Below are positions 4,201 through 29,118 of a stretch of DNA of 64,000 nucleotides, in pieces; the stretch's first letter is position 1; every line of letters starts with the position of its first letter. The notes beneath the pieces were generated by a model. It searched no databases, was not told the origin of the DNA, and saw only the letters and a program-made list of their open reading frames with translations. The DNA is from a virus (Duplodnaviria > Caudoviricetes), in IMG/VR virus record IMGVR_UViG_3300047553_000177, positions 4,686 to 68,685 of that record; one strand, given 5' to 3'. A program made the position numbers and the translations under genes.

Positions 4201-5912
4201 ATACATCTTACGGTGATGCTATAAATGCTAATGGGGAATCTAGAAATAAAGTTATCCCTATATTCTATGTAAATCCTTTAGATGAATCCTTAACAAGTAG
4301 AGATATAGCCAGTACAATTGCTCAGTTCTCTGGTATGGCTAATATGTTTAAAAGAAAGTCTGAGATCAATAGTGCTGTTGTGATGATGAGAGATGTGATA
4401 GAGAATAGAAAACCTCTAGAAGTAAACTCTGCTAATATCCCAATAGTAAATAAAATAGGTAAGAGACTTGGGTTTGTTAAACATGAAACTAAAGAAGGAG
4501 TAGATAATAATTTTAAACATTTATCTGAGTGGATTGACTCAATCTTCTATGGTGAAAAAGATTTAAAAGAATCTCTTAACATATTTGGTAAAGAAATATC
4601 TGCAGCTAAAGTTGCTAACAAACTTGCTTCTTTTACTGCTTTAAATACATTAGCATTAAACTTATTACAATCAACTAATCAGTTCTTAATAGATAATGTA
4701 AGGTTAGTAGAAGAAGGTGTTGCTGGTCAATTTATGTCAAAGGAAAATTTAGCTTATGCTAAAAAGATGTATTATCTAAGTGCTAATGGTGGACTATCTA
4801 CACTTAAAGATTTTGATTCCTTCTCCCCAGAAAGTAAAGTTGTACAAGCTATACAATATTTTGATGCATTAGGGGAATCATTAAGTATCTCAGAAACTAG
4901 ACAGACTGGCCCTAAAGCACTCAGAGCTGTAAATGATATTCCTATGGGGCTTCAAAAAATAGCTGAACATGAAACAGCTGTTACAAGAATGTTTGGAGTA
5001 CTTGATAGCTATAAAGGAAAACTCAAAGACAAGGATGGGAATGTAATTAAAAATGAACAAGGAGAAGATGCTAATCTTTGGGATGTGTTCATTAAAAATG
5101 AAGCTACAGGTTTATTTGAAATAGACCCTAGAGTAGCTAACGTAAAAAAGATAGAGGTAATCAATAGATTATCTGGACTGACTAAGAAAACAAACCAGAT
5201 TAAAACTGACTTTGATAATGCTATGCTTCAAAGAAGAGCAGGGGGAAAACTTTTAATGCTCTTCCGTAGATACTTTGTACCAGCATTGAGAAGAAACTTT
5301 GGACACAACGGGCTTCGTGGAGGAGTTCATCGTGACTTAGAATTAGGTACTATATCAGAAGGTATGTTCTCTACATTTGGCAGGTATATAAAAGAAACAT
5401 TTAGTAAGCAGGGTGGAAGAATGAATTTTGTATCTGTATATAAAATGATGGAAGACTTTGAGAAGCAGAACATGAAGAGAATGTCTGTTCAAATAGGATT
5501 CTTTATACTCTGCTCATTAATAATAATGTCTCTATCTGGAGATGACGATGATGATAATGGATATTGGGAATCGTTTATGTTATACCAAGCTTTACGTATG
5601 AATTCTGAATTAACACAATTCATCAACCCATCAGAATTCTTAAAGCTTGCATTATCCCCAACTGCTACTGCTCGTCCTTTACAAAGAGCTATAGATTTAT
5701 TCCATCAAGTTTGGACTACAGGTATGGGACATCTTACTGGAGATCCAGATGGATTATATTATGAAAGAAGATCTGGTATCCATGAAAAAGGAGATAGTAA
5801 ATTAATTGCAAAAGCAACTAAGCTTCTACCAATAATAGGTGGATTAGAAAAATCTTCTGATCCAGAAACAGCAGCAAGCTGGTTTGATTTAGGAGCTGGT
5901 AATACAAAATAG
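1242..5912 (+). CDS. giant virion cargo/ejection protein with zincin-like metallopeptidase domain
   Basis: 1556 aa. HExxH motif (THIHEFAHIL) with a downstream Glu (FEVLVTAIG), long helical regions, last gene of the + strand cargo cluster. Confidence 0.65.
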   Translation: MACYFLKIDKNGQIRQSPVHTRVIQYLDNKIRNNEQILGTDVQSILVDAGIMGLFVSKVNISDGLDNIQDIVELNAILEFNYGAKGSAIRLTPVEGKRGLEIIAQIDENVLNQISPVAAPTFSSERYAYEFAMEQKIRSEGWISPVIQYTGDPRVKVIADPQAIVKMPNEVARNTKPVFNPSLLDIAIEESKVTKERVASILARLEQDAKDSRVIDANETRVAIDDISGQINKMKTAFEKAGVPVQIDIDTDLEVKGRVINEKGKILTIKLNPVLMTEDTHIHEFAHILIDLLGEDNPVVARALKEVRNTNLYDKVREKYPELDPKQLDFEVLVTAIGLAGAKFNRNNPNKLQQLVNRLLRALSKVFGLESNTSAVEELAQSLLQGRIDKSMFEGKTISFLMADSKQSVDENKKKFEEILQDSRIAIEESIAKIKRKGESADLKAAARLEVLQKRLETAKEVEDFKEFIEYGFHLANRAKDVINDVFEQYSENPEMLSGEQRLEMMHKLQTVGEYVSDFFGAKDPRNSVMGKIHDLIDYKVSMLEGSEDIESNPEFLKLTAIEQKISKAVMNMNKVANKYTKAGIPILVDLLMEYNRPEINDQIDNAIENIKNNQRLIAIEQDAEYFEIKRLQKEKKYSSDKDENDRKAFEALLALNMEQLANKKITRQTLIRELTEAQKDKSAFSYLVDPIIYSSQVGLQMFATMLKDKMYQANDDTREDISKISKAYQAYEKIMGLGIDPNKFNEKILEVHSYRVFNHETGKMEDMRVLSFVQPYDVTRYKSEEQKMYNDLGKTHNKPGETATDEEFSKWAKSSEGKAYYKDVANWYKNNSVPSESAKAELQKLLNEKSAIKNLLEQAKKTKKTDLIAHYEMEFSLINSMISKIYDPVYKQFKYTAVRPNDKYVNPKYANMDAASKEYHAALLDLYKEKQKTLGKGSNQIRNSWDTFSYIVPAVRSTGLEKVQKDGAYSAARDAVKNTFEFLSTDTSYGDAINANGESRNKVIPIFYVNPLDESLTSRDIASTIAQFSGMANMFKRKSEINSAVVMMRDVIENRKPLEVNSANIPIVNKIGKRLGFVKHETKEGVDNNFKHLSEWIDSIFYGEKDLKESLNIFGKEISAAKVANKLASFTALNTLALNLLQSTNQFLIDNVRLVEEGVAGQFMSKENLAYAKKMYYLSANGGLSTLKDFDSFSPESKVVQAIQYFDALGESLSISETRQTGPKALRAVNDIPMGLQKIAEHETAVTRMFGVLDSYKGKLKDKDGNVIKNEQGEDANLWDVFIKNEATGLFEIDPRVANVKKIEVINRLSGLTKKTNQIKTDFDNAMLQRRAGGKLLMLFRRYFVPALRRNFGHNGLRGGVHRDLELGTISEGMFSTFGRYIKETFSKQGGRMNFVSVYKMMEDFEKQNMKRMSVQIGFFILCSLIIMSLSGDDDDDNGYWESFMLYQALRMNSELTQFINPSEFLKLALSPTATARPLQRAIDLFHQVWTTGMGHLTGDPDGLYYERRSGIHEKGDSKLIAKATKLLPIIGGLEKSSDPETAASWFDLGAGNTK

Positions 5913-22068: not shown

Positions 22069-22233
22069 TCACAATTCTTCGATTGATTTAAAGGTTATTA
22101 CAATAAATCCTATTATAATGGATCTTATTATAAGTTTACCAATAGGGTGCTCGTAACTATCAGTTACAACTACATCTTGTCCTGTAAATCCCAATCCGAT
22201 AACTGGAGATATAGAAATTGAATAATCTGTCAT
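22069..22233 (-). CDS. small hypothetical protein (54 aa, not in the ORF track)
   Basis: MTDYSISISPVIGLGF...KSIEEL. ATGA-coupled to the polA stop and fills the gap exactly. Confidence 0.55.
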   Translation of the reverse strand: MTDYSISISPVIGLGFTGQDVVVTDSYEHPIGKLIIRSIIIGFIVITFKSIEEL

Positions 22234-24146
22234 TTGCTCCAAACTTTAGTAATTGATGTTTCAGCTTTCAATAAGCCATTCTTAATAATAGTGTTTGCTG
22301 CCTTCTCCATGAGTTCAGTCATCTTTAGTTTCCATTCTTCAGCATAATCAATAGGGCAGACTGTATCAATCTGATCATGTACAGTCATTACTATTTTGAC
22401 TGGTAGATTGTTTTCTTTAATATGCTTATAAATTAAAACTAAAGCAAGCTTAGTCATATCAGCAGAGCTACCTTGGATAGGAGTATTCTTTGATGCACGT
22501 TCGATACTTCCAAGCTCCATAAAGCTATCTTTATCGTTATACATCTTTGGGGTCCAGCTATTGAACCATCTCTTTCGTTTGAACGGAGGAAATGTTTCAA
22601 TATAACCATGACGTTTTCCAAACTCTCCTAATCCATCTAAGAAACTCTGAATCTTAGGGAAGGCTTTGAAGTATTTAGCAATCAATTCTTTTGCTTCTTT
22701 TAAGTTGCAATTGATTGTTTCAGATAACTTCTTAGGTCCCATCCCATAAGCTAATCCAAAGTTAATCGTCTTAACTTGAGTTCTTAATTTCTTGTGCTCT
22801 TTGCAATTGCACTTCTCTTTTGCTTTTACGTAATCACAATCAGGCTCAGCAGCTTTATTCCATACATCTCCAAATACTAGTTCTGCACATACTGAGTGCA
22901 AGTCTTCATTATTTTCTAGAGCTTTGAGGAATACAGGGTCTTGACTCCCGTATGCAATTACATTTAATTCTTGTGATGAATAGTCACTAGAGACAAATAC
23001 ATATCCTTCAGGGGCAATGAAACAATTTCTGTACTCGTTAGTAGCAGGGATTTGTTGCATGTTTGGCTCAGAACTACTAACACGACCTGTATCCAGGATT
23101 TGTGTGAAATTCGTTCTGACTTTCTTATCAGCACTTAGGAATGTGTAAAAGTTCTCCCCGAAAGCAGAGGATAACTTATCTTTCTCCTTGTACTTGATAT
23201 ACTCATCAATAAGATTATGCTTATACCTATAAGGGGCAAGCTTCTTACCATTAGCACTTTCAAGTTCAGGGACTAGAGTTCTAAATACTTTTAACACTTG
23301 AGTAGGGGATGACCATTTAACTGTAGAATCTTTTAATTCTTCTACAGGTGTAAATAAATCCATCTGCTTTTGTGCTTTGTATCTAGAAAACCTTTCATCA
23401 GCAACAAGAGACTTGTCTAGTTGTTTCTCTAGTTCAAGTGATGTTGCTTTGTTTCTAACAGCTAGTTTCTTCCAAGCTTCTGTATCAAGGATTAATCCTT
23501 CATACTCAATCTCAGAGAAAACTATTACAGCCATATTCTCAAGCTTAACTACACTACGTAGTTTCTTAAAGTCTATGTCTGCTTGTTGTTTGTGATAAAT
23601 ATCGATTAGATACTCTACGTCTTTTGAACCATACACAATCTGGTCTACTGTAAAGGGAGTTGATTCTTGTGCTACGAATCTATTTCGTACTTCTTTGTTT
23701 AATGTTATCCCTAAGTAACGTTGTGTAAGCTTGGCAAGAGCAAAGCCATAATCGTCTTTACCACAGTGTAATATCTTCTCAACTAAGAATGTATCGTATA
23801 CATTATTGAGGCTGATATTACAATAGAATTTGAGGAACTTGTAATCGAACTTAGCATTATGAAGTATTTTAATTTTAGAATCATCTTCTAAAACTTCTTT
23901 CAACATTGCTATCTCTTCTTTACTAGTTACTCTGTAGTCAATGACAAATTGTTTCTCTTTGTCACCACATTGAATCATGAGCAATTTCTTTCCTGTGAAG
24001 TCGAAACCTTCGGTCTCGGTATCTACCCCAATCAAATCAATTGATCGTAAGTAATCTACACATTCCTGCATTGTACATGAGTTCAATGGGTATTCAAAGA
24101 GATTATCTCCACCATTAACTACATAGATAGAATCAGAGTATTTCAT
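22230..24146 (-). CDS. polA: DNA polymerase family A with 3'-5' exonuclease
   Basis: Exo motifs DTET, HNAKFD, YGSKD. Pol motifs TGRVSS, DYSSQEL, KTINFGLAYG, NTPIQGS, VHDQ. Start is uncertain (ORF open to 24182). Confidence 0.95.
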   Translation of the reverse strand: MKYSDSIYVVNGGDNLFEYPLNSCTMQECVDYLRSIDLIGVDTETEGFDFTGKKLLMIQCGDKEKQFVIDYRVTSKEEIAMLKEVLEDDSKIKILHNAKFDYKFLKFYCNISLNNVYDTFLVEKILHCGKDDYGFALAKLTQRYLGITLNKEVRNRFVAQESTPFTVDQIVYGSKDVEYLIDIYHKQQADIDFKKLRSVVKLENMAVIVFSEIEYEGLILDTEAWKKLAVRNKATSLELEKQLDKSLVADERFSRYKAQKQMDLFTPVEELKDSTVKWSSPTQVLKVFRTLVPELESANGKKLAPYRYKHNLIDEYIKYKEKDKLSSAFGENFYTFLSADKKVRTNFTQILDTGRVSSSEPNMQQIPATNEYRNCFIAPEGYVFVSSDYSSQELNVIAYGSQDPVFLKALENNEDLHSVCAELVFGDVWNKAAEPDCDYVKAKEKCNCKEHKKLRTQVKTINFGLAYGMGPKKLSETINCNLKEAKELIAKYFKAFPKIQSFLDGLGEFGKRHGYIETFPPFKRKRWFNSWTPKMYNDKDSFMELGSIERASKNTPIQGSSADMTKLALVLIYKHIKENNLPVKIVMTVHDQIDTVCPIDYAEEWKLKMTELMEKAANTIIKNGLLKAETSITKVWSK

Positions 24147-24330
24147 TTCTCGTAGATTGATGTGCATCTTCGTTCTTCTCAATAAAATCGAGAATAGCTT
24201 CTACATACTTTTTATCGTATGTAACCCCATCAAAGATTACTTTATTACTCTGACAATTTACGTACTCCTTACGTAACTGTACATATCTCCCTGTATCAAG
24301 GAGATTTTTAACAAACTTCATATGACTCAT
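24133..24330 (-). CDS. hypothetical protein
   Basis: 65-aa ORF overlapping the polA start. Confidence 0.55.
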   Translation of the reverse strand: MSHMKFVKNLLDTGRYVQLRKEYVNCQSNKVIFDGVTYDKKYVEAILDFIEKNEDAHQSTRNEIL

Positions 24331-24336
24331 AATTGA

Positions 24337-24603
24337 TTATTTTACATCTTGATCTCCGAACTTTTCTCCGAACTTTTCTCCGTAAGTTTCGTTGTAGTAT
24401 TCTTTTCCATCTCTACTTGTGTCAATCATACACATTCCTTTACATCCATGATTAGCCGCTTTAATAATCTGCTCCTTCTCCATTTGCTTGGCTTGTTCCA
24501 TTAACTTATAAATACTTCCAATTTGCTCAGGAGATAAGTCACCAATCATATCGTCGGTTAAATTATTCCAGAACCATTCAACCGCAGTTTGTTTCTTTTC
24601 CAT
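24337..24603 (-). CDS. hypothetical protein (KQTAVEW...EQAKQMEKEQI type)
   Basis: Sequence pattern I recognise as common in Bacteroidota phages. Shares a 21-nt leader with the next gene. Confidence 0.65.
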   Translation of the reverse strand: MEKKQTAVEWFWNNLTDDMIGDLSPEQIGSIYKLMEQAKQMEKEQIIKAANHGCKGMCMIDTSRDGKEYYNETYGEKFGEKFGDQDVK

Positions 24604-24876
24604 AGTTATTTAGTTTTAAAGGTTTTCTATTTCTTCTTTTACTTTTTCCCAATATGTAAACTGATTTTCTGCTGCTGTTAAATCAATTATAACTATTGAA
24701 TTTATAATCTCATCTACTGCTATCAATGCACATTGTTTGTTTGCATCACAATCAACATTTTTAAGATCAGTTTCAATATTGCAAGGTTCAATACTAATGA
24801 ATATTTCAACTTTATTAAACCTTTTAATTAATTCTTCTGCTTTTTCTTTTGGTGTCATAGTTATTTAGTTTTAAAG
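24601..24876 (-). repeat. 21-nt direct repeat CTTTAAAACTAAATAACTATG (24601-24621 and 24856-24876)
   Basis: Identical leader plus ATG of two adjacent small genes. Confidence 0.85.
24616..24858 (-). CDS. hypothetical protein (MTPKEKA..CALIAVDEI..YWEKVK type)
   Basis: Sequence pattern I recognise as common in Bacteroidota phages. Confidence 0.65.
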   Translation of the reverse strand: MTPKEKAEELIKRFNKVEIFISIEPCNIETDLKNVDCDANKQCALIAVDEIINSIVIIDLTAAENQFTYWEKVKEEIENL

Positions 24877-24880
24877 TTAG

Positions 24881-24973
24881 TAGCACAGACAGGATTCGAA
24901 CCTGTACGTAAGGATTAACGTGTAGCCTTACTCTCTTATTTATTAATAGCGTCTACCATTCCGCCACCTGACT
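24881..24973 (-). tRNA. degenerate tRNA-like element (Leu/Ser-type D arm, long variable arm, no assignable anticodon)
   Basis: AGTCAGG-TGGCGGAATGGTAGACGC D arm, TAAGG..CCTTA variable stem, ACAGG-TTCGAAT-CCTGT T arm. Acceptor stem imperfect, anticodon stem absent, no CCA. Confidence 0.6.
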
Positions 24974-24978
24974 ATGTT

Positions 24979-25190
24979 ACTATTAGCTCTTTAGCATTCT
25001 ACTCCCTGCATGACGGAATTGTATCTTACTTAGCCCTACGTCCTCAGTACGGGTACTAAAGTTTACTAATAGTTTTGCCTTTTTAAACGACGTCGAGAAG
25101 GCTAACTCTATCTCCTATACGATGAGAACAGTTTCATGATAAATCAGAGGAGTTACTGTGTTTTACGATCTCCTGGCCAACGGAGCTATT
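24979..25190 (-). ncRNA. putative structured RNA upstream of the tRNA-like element
   Basis: Nested stems ACTATTAG/CTAATAGT and CTTTAG/CTAAAG, hairpin GCCTT/AAGGC, pseudoknot AGGAG/CTCCT plus ACAGT/ACTGT. No ORF. Confidence 0.45.
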
Positions 25191-25202
25191 GCTTTAAATA
25201 AG

Positions 25203-25324
25203 ATAATCACAGTACCAGTTTACTAGAGTTTAGAATAGTTAGATATGTATGTACATCTCAATCTAACATCTTTCATCCAAGGTGTTGGTAGCTAGCCATT
25301 TGCACGAGCTAGTACCGTGATTAT
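25203..25324 (-). ncRNA. putative multi-stem RNA
   Basis: 16-bp closing helix AUAAUCACGGUACUAG/CUGGUACUGUGAUUAU, continuous only on the - strand (2 G-U pairs), enclosing further hairpins. Confidence 0.55.
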
Positions 25325-25415
25325 TATGTGTCTAAAGTTAAATAACAAATCGATACAAAAGAGACAAACCCCCGTCTCTAATGTATCATTTGTTCTATAA
25401 GTGGTATATTATCCA

Positions 25416-25583
25416 CTACTCTCTCACTAATCTAACCCCTAAACGAAAGGGTCCAAATAAGAATGCAAGCCAATATGAATCGGCAACATCAGGGAGACAT
25501 TCCCCAAAAGCAATGGTTGGAATGAAAATGAATACTTTCTTTTCCGTAGTCAACCATATTTGTATGTGATATTTTGGTTTCAT
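25416..25583 (-). CDS. small hypothetical protein (55 aa, not in the ORF track)
   Basis: MKPKYHIQIW...RLVRE. ATGA-coupled to the upstream lipoprotein gene. Confidence 0.5.
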   Translation of the reverse strand: MKPKYHIQIWLTTEKKVFIFIPTIAFGECLPDVADSYWLAFLFGPFRLGVRLVRE

Positions 25584-25756
25584 CTCCATAAATAGTTTTC
25601 TGTTAATCTATATTTTGGTTTTTTAACATGAACAGGATTGTCAATACTTGGACAATGTTGTGGATCAATCGTATTATATACATGATCTGGAATTTCCTTA
25701 ATTGTTGTACAGCTTGATATGAGTACAACAGAGATTAGTAATAATAAAGTTTTCAT
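25580..25756 (-). CDS. small lipoprotein
   Basis: MKTLLLLISVVLISS-C lipobox, 58 aa. Confidence 0.65.
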   Translation of the reverse strand: MKTLLLLISVVLISSCTTIKEIPDHVYNTIDPQHCPSIDNPVHVKKPKYRLTENYLWR

Positions 25757-25769
25757 GATCTTAAATGTT

Positions 25770-25904
25770 TTAATTAATAGGTTCTGCAAGAACTATATCA
25801 GTTCCTTCTTGTTGAGATCTTCTTACTGCAAAATCTCTGTTAGTTGTTACACAGTTTAATCCATTAGACAGTGTATAAATATACAAGTAATATTCTTGTT
25901 CCAT
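25770..25904 (-). CDS. small hypothetical protein (44 aa, not in the ORF track)
   Basis: MEQEYYLYIY...AEPIN. A-rich leader, fits the operon packing. Confidence 0.5.
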   Translation of the reverse strand: MEQEYYLYIYTLSNGLNCVTTNRDFAVRRSQQEGTDIVLAEPIN

Positions 25905-25929
25905 TGATTTGTAAATGAGTTTAGTTAAA

Positions 25930-25967
25930 CAAAAGTAAAAGAATCTAGGGGAAATTAATCCCCTAGA
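25930..25967 (-). terminator. intrinsic terminator
   Basis: TCTAGGGGA-N6-TCCCCTAGA 9-bp hairpin followed by a T-rich tract on the - strand. Confidence 0.7.
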
Positions 25968-26017
25968 AACTTTCTTAAACAGCGACCAATTATACTAGTT
26001 CGAATCGAATGTTATCA

Positions 26018-26602
26018 CTAGTTATTGATTTCTCCTGTTATTACAGACGTAGCTGTAACTGCTTTAGAGCCATCCATTGGCAAGAACACATGAGCTGCTT
26101 TATCTAAGCAAATCGTAGTGTTAGCAAAGATGTGTTTGCCATTGTGATAGCAATACTCACCGTCTTTACCTTTACGTTTAGCACTTGTTTCCAAGTTAGC
26201 TAATTGATACTCAGTACCTTCGGTGGTCTCAAGAACCTGTACTTTAATGTTTCGTGGAGTACCACTGATATTAGCTACAGGATTTAAAACATTAAGTTGT
26301 AATGTTTCTCTTCCGTAACTGTCAGTAACCCAGTCAGCATTATCTGACATGTCAATGCCAAATACATTGTAGACATCAGCAACAGCTGCTGTCATCCATG
26401 CTCGTCTTGCTCCACCTTGTGAGAAACGTGGATCACTAGCATTTAATAGTGCCAATAGATTTACAGAATTAGATCCGTTTTCGAGAATCTCTGCAAATTC
26501 TAATTGAATTTTGTTACCAGCAACTTTCCTAGCCGATACCATCAAGGTCTGTCCAACCTGCAATCCCTGCAAGCTTCCAGAATTTAGAGTGTTTTTACTC
26601 AT
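26018..26602 (-). CDS. hypothetical early protein (194 aa)
   Basis: Likely ATG at 26602 (MSKNTLNSG) after an A-rich leader. Followed by a terminator. Confidence 0.7.
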   Translation of the reverse strand: MSKNTLNSGSLQGLQVGQTLMVSARKVAGNKIQLEFAEILENGSNSVNLLALLNASDPRFSQGGARRAWMTAAVADVYNVFGIDMSDNADWVTDSYGRETLQLNVLNPVANISGTPRNIKVQVLETTEGTEYQLANLETSAKRKGKDGEYCYHNGKHIFANTTICLDKAAHVFLPMDGSKAVTATSVITGEINN

Positions 26603-26640
26603 GATTTTTATATGTGATTTATGTAAATCCAAGATTAAAT

Positions 26641-26765
26641 AACATTGCAGCAGACAAACCCTTCATGATGGCCCATTGCCATTCTTTTTAGCTGTCTATT
26701 CTGTGCACAAATAACTATCTCTACTATAACTTTTCTTGAGGATTCGAGATAGATGCTGCAATGTT
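26641..26765 (-). ncRNA. putative four-way-junction RNA
   Basis: Perfect 12-bp closing stem AACATTGCAGCA/TGCTGCAATGTT enclosing CTATCTC/GAGATAG, TATTTGT/ACAGAATA and GACAG/TTGTC (with an inner ATGGC/GCCAT) arms. Strand inferred from context. Confidence 0.5.
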
Positions 26766-26897
26766 GTACCCCTCTGCACTCAGTTGTAATACTTCATAGC
26801 CTATAGACCACAAATAAATTGTGTATGGAATAATTCTTACATACTTCATATTACAAACTGCTCACCCTTGGGAAGTGAGTTATGGTGCATTAGCAAA
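26764..26897 (-). ncRNA. twister-like self-cleaving ribozyme, copy A (type P1, long P5)
   Basis: U^AA-UGCAC-C..CUCACU-UCCCAAG-GGUGAG-P5-A-GUGCA-GAGGG-GUAC. Matches the twister core order and covaries with copy B. P1 is weak. Confidence 0.68.
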
Positions 26898-26922
26898 GCA
26901 GTTTATACACTTGCTTAGGTGT
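26896..26922 (-). ncRNA. compact H-type pseudoknot between the ribozymes
   Basis: ACAC-CU-AAGCA-A-GUGU-AUAAAC-UGCUU: S1 ACAC/GUGU, S2 AAGCA/UGCUU. Confidence 0.5.
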
Positions 26923-27078
26923 TTGTACCACTCTGCATTCAGTGTAACACACTTGCCCTCCAACCGTCATAGTAATTTACTATTAGGGTAACAGTAATCT
27001 GCAAGCTCTATTCCTGTTCACGCTACCTGTGTTACACTGCCAACCCTTGTGAAGTTGGAATGATGCATTAATACAAAC
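26921..27078 (-). ncRNA. twister-like self-cleaving ribozyme, copy B (type P1, long P5)
   Basis: P1 GUUUGUAU/GUACAAAC, U^AA, P2 UGCAU/AUGCA, P4 CCAACU/GGUUGG, L4 UCACAAG, T1 CAC/GUG after GA, P5 CAGUGUAACAC/GUGUUACACUG. Confidence 0.72.
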
Positions 27079-27136
27079 CAACAACATCTCAGTCGAAAGA
27101 CTTGTATCGACAAATCAGACCTTGATGCTGTTGGTT
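27076..27136 (-). ncRNA. three-way-junction RNA element
   Basis: 13-bp stem AACCAACAGCAUC/GAUGUUGUUGGUU, continuous on the - strand, with two small hairpins (UUGU/ACAA, AGUC/GACU). Confidence 0.5.
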
Positions 27137-27141
27137 AATGA

Positions 27142-27240
27142 TTATAAAACTGGTGACATTAGGAAACAAAGTATAACAAACAACCAGATAGTTGTTGATA
27201 TAGTAGCTCCTAATATGAATGACTTCTCTTCTGTTTTCAT
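27142..27240 (-). CDS. 32-aa hydrophobic peptide (not in the ORF track)
   Basis: MKTEEKSFILGATISTTIWLFVILCFLMSPVL, a single TM helix. Confidence 0.5.
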   Translation of the reverse strand: MKTEEKSFILGATISTTIWLFVILCFLMSPVL

Positions 27241-27265
27241 AACAATGTGTTATAAAGTTTAGATG

Positions 27266-27296
27266 GACTAATTTGTAGGCATTAGTCTGATTGCCT
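27266..27296 (-). ncRNA. H-type pseudoknot
   Basis: AGGCA-AUCA-GACUAA-UGCCU-ACAAA-UUAGUC: perfect 5-bp and 6-bp stems, A-rich loop 3. Confidence 0.55.
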
Positions 27297-27384
27297 TGAA
27301 AGGGTTGTGGAGATCCTGGTAATCAATTACTTAACAACGAAGTGATGATTATTCCCTATATCCCCTGGGTCCCGAAGGAACTCC

Positions 27385-27543
27385 TTAGAGGAGTCCTTCA
27401 GTTGTGGCCCATTCCACAGCAGCATCAAACTGCACATGGTCAGCTGGGACCCATAGCATGTCTTCCTTTGGCATCTTGCCAGATTGGAATACGATCTTGC
27501 CTGACTTAATCAAAAGTCCTTTAGGTGTAAGATAAGCTTTCAT
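27385..27543 (-). CDS. first early gene, 52-aa hypothetical protein
   Basis: Likely ATG at 27543 (MKAYLTPKGLLIKSG). Higher GC than its surroundings. Confidence 0.55.
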   Translation of the reverse strand: MKAYLTPKGLLIKSGKIVFQSGKMPKEDMLWVPADHVQFDAAVEWATTEGLL

Positions 27544-27858
27544 AAGATTGGTGCCGGGGGGTTTGATCCGGCAATAGTTAGTGGGGTCTTTGAATCTGTA
27601 GGATAACACTCTCAAAAAATTCCCATCAAAAAAAATTTTCCCCCAAAAAAATTCTATCTACTTTAAAGGTGGTTAATTCGAGACCTTTAGATGTTTGGTT
27701 GGTTAGTGCTACTACCCATCTTGTTAATATCAACCTAATGATGTTTTTAGGTGTAGGTGAGTTAGTTGGTTCCTTACGAGGACAGTTTGTCCCTGGGTAG
27801 TAGAGTCACGTTTATTGCACAAAATACTGGACATTTTGCATAAGGGGTTTGGCAAAAA

Positions 27859-27931
27859 TTTTCCACTAAGCCATAGGGGGGTTGGGGATTATTTTCCACT
27901 AAAGGGCTGATTCTGGTGAATATTTTCCACA
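27859..27931 (+). repeat. three DnaA-box-like direct repeats TTTTCCAC(T/A)
   Basis: At 27859, 27892 and 27923 (spacing 33 and 31 nt), in the strand-switch intergenic region. Confidence 0.6.
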
Positions 27932-27970
27932 ATAGCTGTCGCAAAAGTTTACTATACTTTCCCCCAAGCA

Positions 27971-28124
27971 TGTCACAATTTTTAAAATATTTGTGACAGA
28001 TGTGGTTTTTAACATCTACCTAATATATACCCGTTAGGAGTACTTGGTATAATACCTAAAGGTATAATGTACCCTATAGGGTATCGGAAGAGCTTGTAAC
28101 ATTTTTACCTTGTTTTTGTTACAA
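27971..28124. repeat. cluster of palindromes / inverted repeats
   Basis: TGTCACAA-N12-TTGTGACA, AGATGT-N8-ACATCT, ATACCT-AA-AGGTAT, TACCCTATAGGGTA, TTGTAACA...TGTTACAA. Confidence 0.6.
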
Positions 28125-28150
28125 AAAGTATAAAGTTAAGATAGCTTGCT

Positions 28151-28158
28151 TATATTTG
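28151..28158 (+). promoter_or_regulatory. TAnnTTTG -7 promoter element
   Basis: TATATTTG, 4 nt before the ATG at 28163. Confidence 0.65.
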
Positions 28159-28162
28159 TCAA

Positions 28163-28312
28163 ATGAGACAAGAGGAGTTTTTATTTTTAAGATCACAGGT
28201 TAGAGCATTTCACCCTGACTGGACTGACGAACAAGTTAATGAGGAGTGCAACAAAATCTTATCTGGGGAGTATAATGAAAATGAAGACTCTTGTTTATAT
28301 TGTGGAAGCTAA
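28163..28312 (+). CDS. 49-aa acidic protein with C-terminal CxxCGS (not in the ORF track)
   Basis: MRQEEFLFLRSQVRAFHPDWTDEQVNEECNKILSGEYNENEDSCLYCGS, with its own promoter. Confidence 0.65.
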   Translation: MRQEEFLFLRSQVRAFHPDWTDEQVNEECNKILSGEYNENEDSCLYCGS

Positions 28313-28324
28313 ACCAAAAATGCT

Positions 28325-28492
28325 ATGAAATTTCAAACATTCTCTTACAAGACCTATGGAACTAAAAAGTTCGGGGTTATGTTCTATTCTAACCTTAAAG
28401 GGTATGGAGTAAAAGTATACTTCAATAGGACTGTGGGGGTATTAATTTTAGAAACAAATGGCAAAAGTAAAACAAACACAGACAACGTTTAA
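28325..28492 (+). CDS. 55-aa hypothetical protein (not in the ORF track)
   Basis: MKFQTFSYKTYG...NTDNV, fills the gap between two small ORFs. Confidence 0.45.
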   Translation: MKFQTFSYKTYGTKKFGVMFYSNLKGYGVKVYFNRTVGVLILETNGKSKTNTDNV

Positions 28493-28595
28493 AGCTAAAC
28501 CAAAAGTTAAGAGACCTGGGATTCATGCTAAAACTAAACACTCAAAGTTGAAAACTTCTAAGCATTATCACAAACTTTCAGTTGGACAAGGGTAA
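28458..28595 (+). CDS. 45-aa highly basic protein (not in the ORF track)
   Basis: MAKVKQTQTTFKAKPKVKRPGIHAKTKHSKLKTSKHYHKLSVGQG. Confidence 0.65.
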   Translation: MAKVKQTQTTFKAKPKVKRPGIHAKTKHSKLKTSKHYHKLSVGQG

Positions 28596-28605
28596 TAAAT
28601 TTAAC

Positions 28606-28613
28606 TATATTTG
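28606..28613 (+). promoter_or_regulatory. TAnnTTTG -7 promoter element driving a non-coding region
   Basis: TATATTTG, 4 nt before the start of a closing helix. No downstream ATG ORF. Confidence 0.6.
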
Positions 28614-28617
28614 CATC

Positions 28618-28862
28618 TGCAACCGTAATCCTAAACGATCACCCCTGAGGTAACCAAAGTAGGGGGTCAGAAGTCGGGTTCTATTTCTATCGACATAGTT
28701 AGAAAAAGTTGTCCCCGATAGTTGCAAAAATGGAATTGATATAAGATACTGGGGAGGGTTAAAACTATAGGCTGACAGAAATGTTCCTCCGAAGGCTAAA
28801 GACGGCAGTAATCTAAAGGTCAATTTAAAACACAAAAAATTCCAAGGGGATAGGTGTATCCA
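28618..28862 (+). ncRNA. putative structured ncRNA of about 245 nt
   Basis: Helices TGCAAC/GTTGCA, CCCCT/AGGGG, TCGGG/CCCGA, TGGAATT/AATTCCA, GGAGG/CCTCC, GGATA/TATCC. GC-richer than its flanks and has its own promoter. Confidence 0.55.
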
Positions 28863-28890
28863 ATCGATAAATTTTATAATTTAGCAGAAT

Positions 28891-29118
28891 ATGCCTACTT
28901 ACATTCAAACTGGGATTTATCAGCCTCCCTTCACAAAAGAAGAAGACTCTGAGCAAGCAGTCGTTTATATTGATGACAAAGTCATTCAAATACTAGACGA
29001 TAAAGATGAGCTCGTTGTACAATTCACATATGAAGAGCTTAGAGGCATCATGGCCATCATGGCTGCTGAACAAGAGAAATCTCATTTGTGGATACAGGCT
29101 ATAGCTAGAAATAACTAA
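28891..29118 (+). CDS. hypothetical protein
   Basis: 75 aa. TAATG coupling to the next gene. Confidence 0.6.
   Translation: MPTYIQTGIYQPPFTKEEDSEQAVVYIDDKVIQILDDKDELVVQFTYEELRGIMAIMAAEQEKSHLWIQAIARNN

Follow-up and report, generated by a model that had tools for sequence, protein, structure and literature searches.

Two tandem twister-like units in a candidate modular small-RNA island ahead of the replication genes of an uncultured phage

Are closely spaced structured RNA elements at the front of a phage gene block the parts of one self-processing transcript, or are they independent modules that share a location? This question is raised by the region 24881-27296 of a 64-kb window, positions 4,686 to 68,685 of the 68.7-kb viral record IMGVR_UViG_3300047553_000177 (IMG/VR, Caudoviricetes; completeness estimate 85%), which was analysed here as the window. 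All RNA elements and small genes of the region lie on the - strand, ahead of the replication genes. An original prediction, made from the letters alone, had described a near edge-to-edge series of structured RNAs, two twister ribozymes among them, at the start of a single early transcript. What it had observed was partly confirmed and what it had made of these observations was partly supported. We consider the region to be probably a modular small-RNA island among small genes, centred on two tandem twister variants.

The two central elements, units B and A, were recognised by eye and in a repeat search from what they have in common, one block at the 5' end, another at the 3' end and a long stem that covaries (coordinates and scores of all features are collected in Table 1). 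Model R1, built from 20 short members of the family to which the units belong, gave exactly two copies in the window and likewise in the whole record, and the gap between them is approx. 27 nucleotides (nt). In unit B helix P1 has 7 base pairs (bp) and the insert of P5 approx. 86 nt, and G-U-G in the 3' strand of L1 is the pairing partner of C-A-C in the loop. U-A-A directly follows P1 in both copies, and the scissile bonds are predicted between U27070 and A27069 in unit B and between U26892 and A26891 in unit A. The predicted twisters were thereby recovered; both carry one conserved motif with a pseudoknot, for which Rfam gives no twister match. The core of unit A (26892-26768), which starts at the U of the predicted cleavage step and stops where the 3' strand of L1 ends, recurs with 97.6% identity over 125 nt in an unrelated 116.7-kb contig (locus L117) in which the flanks are unmatched. 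We concluded from this shared core with unmatched flanks that whole ribozymes, including the P5 arm, move as modules.

To find further members a degenerate pattern of the 5' block was used, in which U-A-A and other letters were fixed. The pattern was present in at least 120 viral contigs and in just 17 stretches among 185,579 species genomes; most of these 17 belong to metagenome bins, several of them Bacteroidota. With R1 119 matches at E<=1e-5 were obtained in 100 sources, most of these having been chosen for holding the pattern. The members share the order P1, U-A-A, P2 (UGCAY), C-A-Y followed by 1-2 nt and a P4 hairpin with the loop UUC(C/A)CAAGG in the 5' half, and P5 with an insert of 20-200 nt, A, P2' (RUGCA), GAG(G/U)G and P1' in the 3' half.

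This layout is accompanied by strong covariation. In the R1 alignment of 114 distinct rows 94.9% of the cells pair, compared with 78.2% in shuffles; 20 of the 23 pairs change on both sides and none of 500 shuffles attained the observed values, while 30-51% of the cells were paired in slid controls. The alignment was fitted to nested stems and therefore favours them, and the pseudoknot T1 lies outside the model. T1 was paired in 98.8% of the cells over the same 114 rows, all three of its pairs change on both sides, and C-G is replaced by A-U in 20 and 5 rows. The stems paired to 99.8% (P2), 99.5% (P4), 98.1% (P5) and 75.1% (P1), and each of the four P1 pairs changes on both sides. The U-A-A columns were at least 97% conserved, their letters having been preset by the search pattern. 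Two positions that the regular expression had left free, the middle T1 pair and a fifth pair of P2, fitted in 131/131 and 130/131 of the units found with it. Covariation links the pyrimidine that follows UGCA in P2 with the purine that precedes UGCA in P2' (C-G 85, U-A 27); this pyrimidine could form the fifth P2 pair, or take part in a Y-C:G-G contact with the loop.

The units mostly share the orientation of the surrounding genes. 120 of the 131 units lie outside open reading frames (ORFs) of at least 100 amino acids (aa); in 100 of 104 cases the next ORF downstream runs in the direction of the unit, as does the upstream one in 86 of 106. Layout and covariation bear out the twister architecture that had been proposed. 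When 32 loci with the motif (219 kb) were scanned with Rfam, three of them carried certified ribozymes, two hatchets and one pistol, on the same strand and 150-1100 nt upstream of family copies; the scan contained no motif-free control loci. That self-cleaving ribozymes cluster near each other and near phage genes is established according to PMC10085705. Our literature search, whose coverage left the original twister papers and supplements outside so that an earlier description is possible, returned no paper on this phage twister variant.

By eye, the P5 inserts form recurring sequence families which are common to otherwise different ribozyme copies (L019/L187; L110/L174/L189; L177/L185; L176/L194/L094), and the P5 arm seems to be a swappable cassette. 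Phage contigs with the twister variant also encode other structured RNAs, namely a tmRNA (L099:8424-8820, 62.7 bits) and a 'freshwater-1' RNA (L100:8602-8663, 84.4 bits).

Several points weigh against reading the units as cleaving twisters within a processed leader. In a 391-nt search that spanned the twister-P1, twister-P3, twister-P5, twister-sister, hammerhead, hatchet, pistol and hepatitis delta virus (HDV) families, no Rfam ribozyme model matched either window copy at E<=10, nor did any match the minimal 63-nt member in a 106-nt search at this threshold, and RF03160 gave 0 matches over the genome at E<=10. The three twister models remained without a match at the gathering score and at E<=10 on sequences of 5 kb, 391 nt and 106 nt; for hatchet, pistol, hammerhead and HDV-like ribozymes there was no Rfam match at E<=10 in 24000-29000, the same tool having found hatchet and pistol elsewhere. 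In twister, the contact T2 joins two bulged L4 nucleotides with a conserved GC in L2, and P2 consists of four pairs extended by a sheared A-G (PMC5408937). In the family L2 reads C-A-Y and contains no GC, L4 ends in G-G, and T2 could consist of Y-C:G-G or of just one pair; the invariance of these columns is partly due to the search pattern, which fixed them. P2 comprises four near-invariant pairs and a fifth covarying one, and P1 of unit A is weak. Cleavage is a prediction from sequence, and the RNA-library contigs described below show no ends and may stem from DNA carry-over. Both the promoter role of the block near 27600 and the early timing of the transcript are points that we infer, and the terminator-like matches, 4 compared with 2.3 (standard deviation 1.5) in shuffles, are not in excess. 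Every other listed twister feature is in place, the T2 partners and the length of P2 excepted. Because of the missing Rfam match and the altered T2 and P2 we filed the family as a twister-like variant, and not as a certified member, which would work like twister. A published rice twister sequence is presumably very similar to the family.

The departure of the T2 partners from the published consensus, together with the lack of an Rfam twister match, would also suit conserved RNAs that do not cleave, such as a protective or regulatory 5' fold or an element that binds a ligand or protein, the more so as T2 has been called the most critical tertiary contact for catalysis in twister (PMC5408937). 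We regard this alternative as rather unlikely. The named active-site elements, i.e. the U-A step, T1 with its A-A and the A and G flanking P2, are all present and at least 97% conserved, and certified hatchet and pistol ribozymes occur close to family members. A riboswitch in particular is unlikely since the downstream genes are too varied.

In the reading that we prefer, the units are a twister variant of type P1 whose P5 arm is long and variable, and copy B also carries a P0-like hairpin; the following course can be proposed. The leader would be transcribed from the promoter-like block near 27600, and each ribozyme would cut itself at its predicted U-A bond. These cuts would part a small hydrophobic ORF from the cistron of a 194-aa protein, and the mRNA of the latter would keep a 5'-OH end buried within a folded ribozyme. 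Past two terminator-like hairpins follows a separate cluster of the type known from tRNA regions, with a long hairpin, two RNA modules termed M1 and M2 and a decayed tRNA-Leu-like frame. The modules are probably independent, horizontally exchanged units and not one machine.

Eight RNA-labelled runs contained 5-8% of the sampled words and four of them were aligned to the window; the data are assembled contigs without ends, strand or expression level, and there was no silent control stretch. Contigs from these four libraries are 88-100% identical to the window and cover 24814-25241 and 26633-26953 in part. The stretches lacking such contigs, 25349-25776 and 26954-27800, are uninformative. One further record (library X3, record 12; 493 nt, depth 45) aligned to 26770-26892 with the ribozyme core permuted: the 3' half is followed by one letter and then by the 5' half. 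Its two ends carry the same 24 nt (period 464), similar joints occur in libraries X1 and X4, and the record may represent a small circular or tandem RNA bearing the ribozyme.

Of M1, in the downstream cluster, an exact 20-mer was found in 92 viral contigs. The RNA folds into a hairpin at its 5' end, an insert stem, another, short stem and a pseudoknot of the H type. In an alignment of 54 of the 68 distinct copies, with the 14 long-insert copies left out and the 20-mer preset by the search, 99.4% of the cells are paired and both partners change in 12 of 18 pairs; none of 500 shuffles matched these values. Folding energy does not distinguish M1 (z 0.21). Among the 71 copies with at least 120 nt of downstream sequence, a tRNA called by ARAGORN starts within 20 nt in 11, and in 17 more a T-loop-like motif is present within 140 nt; the other 43 were negative on both counts, and by eye many of them begin with the tRNA-like 5' motif or with M2. 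In relatives M1 precedes genuine tRNAs or tRNA-like frames by 3-6 nt, and from this position tRNA-processing enzymes would be expected to free it there; in the window such a release is doubtful. No paper on M1 was returned by the literature search, which did not extend to supplements, and an earlier description is possible.

M2 was folded with RNAalifold into a Y-shape of 25 pairs (n=9), of which three changed on both sides and three are G-U pairs, and it occurs in 17 loci. A single pseudoknotted RNA had been predicted at 24979; it resolved into the two modules, of which M1 is pseudoknotted. The predicted long-stem RNA at 25203 was recovered: two G-U pairs fit the - strand, and the element is conserved with 89% identity in locus L280 and 83% in L001. 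G-U pairs in this hairpin, in M2 and in the hairpin 27134-27078 agree with the strand originally assigned.

The tRNA-like element that follows M2 is derived from tRNA-Leu. Its first 28-30 nt are identical to a tRNA-Leu(taa) called by ARAGORN in a relative (L018:3014-3107), and it retains a D arm, a T arm and a long variable arm. No anticodon stem was found, the acceptor stem has 5/7 pairs with a drifted 3' strand, compared with 7/7 in relatives, and the fold energy is not distinguishing (z -0.08). The element scored 26 bits with RF00005, below the cut-off of 29, and ARAGORN made no call. With this score, the missing anticodon stem and the damaged acceptor stem a tRNA proper was rejected, while the predicted tRNA-like character was retained. 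The tRNA-Leu-like frame was also observed with other large inserts (L002:8126-8300, L026:9572-9760, L018:2689-2825), none of which was called by ARAGORN; the insert in L002 is approx. 65 nt long and lies in the D loop, and in L026 more than 100 nt replace the anticodon region.

All of these elements might still be parts of one early precursor, which ribozyme cuts and host RNase P/Z would divide into stable RNAs (the P5 arms, M1, M2 and the tRNA-like element) that jointly act as decoys or antitoxin mimics against the defences of the host, as the original prediction had it. The elements do lie on one strand, and their order from the promoter-like block to M1 is common to L002/L081 and L280, the closest relatives for the region. 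M1 is tightly tied to tRNAs and to tRNA-like frames in which the anticodon region is interrupted or has given way to other sequence, and RNA-library contigs bridge the first terminator-like hairpin (25779-26040 and 25903-26053). We nevertheless consider one precursor improbable. The series is not edge to edge, since five ORFs and two terminator-like hairpins lie inside, and the latter split the region into approximately three units; their placement after ORFs, and nothing else about them, is suggestive. A contig over two genes is no proof of one transcript and could be of DNA origin. In more distant relatives the modules are independent and occupy other genome positions: distant PolA relatives have the promoter-like block without twisters, others have M1 or tRNA-like frames downstream of polA, and the copy number of the twister ranges from 1 to 3 among relatives, the features always being co-oriented with polA. 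Varied subsets in varied places, together with the terminators, argue for independent modules in a permissive location, and the single transcript to be carved up is not supported. As for cuts by RNase P/Z, tRNA-derived frames are common beside M1 in relatives, but the acceptor stem in the window is damaged. No defence-related gene or target was among the PHROG and Pfam results. A bolder form, to which we give an equally small chance, would make the island a co-transcribed self-processing cassette system. Twister-type RNAs, M1 and anticodon-less tRNA frames would then be standard carriers of swappable inserts. Excised by the ribozymes and by RNase P/Z, they would supply variable small RNAs early in infection, for instance tRNA mimics or decoys against host defences that target tRNAs.

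That the repeats act as DNA, i.e. as sites of recombination, replication or protein binding, is very hard to credit: a divergent control region with iteron-like repeats is indeed close by and whole modules are exchanged between phages, but compensatory changes keep five helices including the pseudoknot, G-U pairs work on one strand only, and the orientation to genes is strongly biased (100/104).

Returning to the island of independent modules, its leader may begin with a conserved block which we consider a candidate promoter. The relatives that carry the block include loci in which PolA is just 58% identical. The core motif was found in at least 20 relatives, always upstream of and co-oriented with polA, and once in the window. 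The motif TCAAAGACCCC, whose one occurrence in the window is at chance level for a bare 11-mer, has conservation as its sole support, and the fold energy of 27560-27660 is not distinguishing (z 0.23). A possible ORF of 52 aa (27385-27543, - strand) was noted, with its ATG approx. 40 nt downstream of the block. The stretch 27345-27560 had no relative among the 293 loci compared and is thus lineage-specific.

Further into the leader, a pseudoknot had been predicted at 27266. A conserved hairpin was found at this place, within a stretch (27225-27345) of fold z -2.23, and the pseudoknot was not; in the alignment the stem is altered on both sides and still paired in L010, L011 and L001. The predicted transmembrane peptide corresponds to the 32-aa hydrophobic ORF, whose start context is invariant and from whose ATG the relatives run a longer hydrophobic ORF. 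An invariant 6-bp hairpin (27253-27239, - strand) overlaps this ATG in six of six aligned relatives; it never varies and is therefore without covariation, and it could be a gate on translation of the ORF. Directly 5' of P1 of unit B a three-way junction had been proposed (27076). RNAalifold (n=8) gave a single extended hairpin instead, with 23 pairs, two of them changed on both sides, and 85-93% identity in 10 loci; it occupies the place of the optional P0 of twister. The four-way junction placed at 26641 was not upheld either: the minimum-energy fold of 26632-26760 is multi-branched, with z -0.95, and 32 of 200 shuffles fold as well. The untranslated stretch is conserved in three loci, L002/L081 and, weakly, L127.

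The 194-aa gene and the small membrane and lipoprotein ORFs were present as predicted, and neither the 194-aa protein nor the small ORFs belong to a PHROG or Pfam family. For the 194-aa protein the search of viral contigs gave no confirmed relative and the Atlas matches (0.84) were below lead level; at the DNA level the gene has relatives in many polA loci. By eye, the 61-aa ORF has a signal peptide and a lipobox-like ISSC, and the 57-aa ORF is hydrophobic. The stretch 25536-25450 is conserved at 75-80% in relatives.

Table 1. Features of the region 24881-27296 and its upstream block, in the direction of the - strand, followed by certified ribozymes at loci with family copies
Feature	Coordinates	Strand	Evidence or remark
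Promoter-like block ending in ATTCAAAGACCCC	27583..27640	-	29 invariant columns, 11 polA-relative loci
Conserved hairpin, 7-bp stem, 8-nt loop	27266..27287	-	Pairing kept in 6 aligned relatives
Small hydrophobic ORF, 32 aa	27142..27240	-	ORF list and alignment of relatives
Extended hairpin directly 5' of P1 of unit B	27078..27134	-	RNAalifold, 8 sequences
Twister-type unit B	26916..27082	-	Model R1, 55.1 and 65.8 bits (end 26916/26923)
Twister-type unit A	26757..26904	-	Model R1, 75.9 bits, E 7e-18
5' untranslated stretch ahead of 194-aa gene	26632..26756	-	No supported structure
194-aa gene	26018..26602	-	ORF list
Terminator-like hairpin with T-run, after 194-aa gene	25944..25967	-	Terminator scan
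Three small ORFs (44 aa, 61 aa, 57 aa)	25416..25904	-	ORF list
Terminator-like hairpin with T-run, after small ORFs	25360..25379	-	Terminator scan
Long hairpin closed by 16-bp stem	25203..25324	-	z -3.39, 0/200 shuffles; inverted repeat I11
M1, 109-nt pseudoknotted RNA with variable insert hairpin	25077..25185	-	Covariation, n=54
M2, Y-shaped RNA module	24979..25073	-	z -2.33; RNAalifold, 9 sequences
tRNA-Leu-derived tRNA-like element	24881..24973	-	Rfam tRNA, comparison with L018
Hatchet, locus L094	6387-6553		Family copies 7603 and 7973
Hatchet, locus L099	191-325		Family copy 1268
Pistol, locus L100	3922-3985		Family copies 4136 and 4559

The region lies between two gene blocks. On the + strand, terminase, portal and major head genes follow from approx. 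28160, and the - strand encodes PolA (22230-24182), a helicase and rIIA/B-like genes; an early timing of this - strand block is plausible. Between the blocks, in 26640-28160, no ORF of more than 76 aa was present in translation table 11, with TAG read as Q or in table 4, and the alternative codes (TAG=Q, table 4) were rejected, as they opened no long ORF in 24800-28200. Over the whole window Rfam gave 0 matches at the gathering score and, in E-value mode, just chance-level snoRNA and lncRNA matches, a weak 'pan' match and a sub-threshold tRNA, and ARAGORN gave 0 tRNAs. A distant blastn search against GenBank phages returned as sole match 50 nt, at the start of the 80-aa gene, to Flavobacterium phage FL-1.

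Some side observations concern the divergent control region. In 27839-27935 and 28030-28110 it contains three iteron-like direct repeats of approx. 32 nt (core TTAGTGGAAAAT on the - strand), which are followed by short palindromes. The stretch 27877-28084 is found with 72-80% identity in unrelated contigs of 98 kb (L084) and 122 kb (L083). The weak Rfam 'pan' match is located at 28085-28175 on the + strand (30.3 bits, cut-off 36.2). The + strand block is headed by a 49-aa ORF (28163-28312), for which a sub-threshold Pfam match to an Rv0078B-related antitoxin was recorded (E 0.0014, 19 bits, cut-off 27.1).

If the units cleave, a twister variant has been overlooked by the standard catalogue: a large branch carried by phages, in which the T2 contact is altered and the P5 arm is routinely expanded. 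It would bear on the contacts that the twister fold requires and on why phages put self-cleaving RNAs between early cistrons. M1 is a second RNA family, apparently undescribed, and is tied to phage tRNA clusters. The members of both families are short and common enough to be tested directly at the bench.

Stable small RNAs other than tRNAs are known from among the tRNA genes of phages, namely RNA C and D of T4 and the RNAs of the tRNA region of T5. They are presumably released by tRNA-processing enzymes. M1 and M2 may be comparable RNAs, and differ in that they occur in uncultured freshwater phages and, here, beside a decayed tRNA. Theta ribozymes, which are HDV-like, are likewise small structured phage RNAs situated a few nt from tRNA genes, with tRNA-Leu among the tRNAs commonly beside them; their fold is a minimal HDV-like one and they cut immediately next to the tRNA (PMC10879173). 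M1, in contrast, is a 109-nt RNA of hairpins and an H-type pseudoknot, lies mostly 5' of the tRNA and had no match to the HDV models of Rfam. A theta or HDV-like fold was dropped by eye, as no nested double pseudoknot fitted; no theta model was applied.

For the units themselves, twister-sister (RF02681) offers a multi-stem junction, conserved nucleotides in L1 and in the P4 loop and a similar run of letters in the latter. According to PMC6154101 and PMC5660989, twister-sister lacks a Watson-Crick pseudoknot, and its cleavage takes place at a C-A step in the 3' strand of L1, whereas the family has a covarying Watson-Crick pseudoknot and U-A-A on the 5' strand. On these two grounds twister-sister was excluded, and RF02681 gave no match.

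Among the closest known relations is twister of type P1 (RF03160; PMC5408937, PMC6154101), with which the family shares the order of elements from P1 to P1' and the five-nt 3' strand of L1. According to PMC5408937, P1, P2 and P4 are essential and P0, P3 and P5 optional, the scissile U-A step adjoins P1, and T1 joins L4 with L1 by three Watson-Crick pairs plus A-A. The family likewise has T1 with three Watson-Crick pairs and an A opposite an A, the latter read from the sequence, A and G flanking P2, and its conserved nucleotides concentrated in L1 and L4; it, too, neighbours other ribozyme classes in phage DNA. It differs by one extra U in L4, and a P5 with an insert of 20-200 nt is the rule in the family, whereas P5 occurs in approx. 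1% of twisters in the account of PMC6154101.

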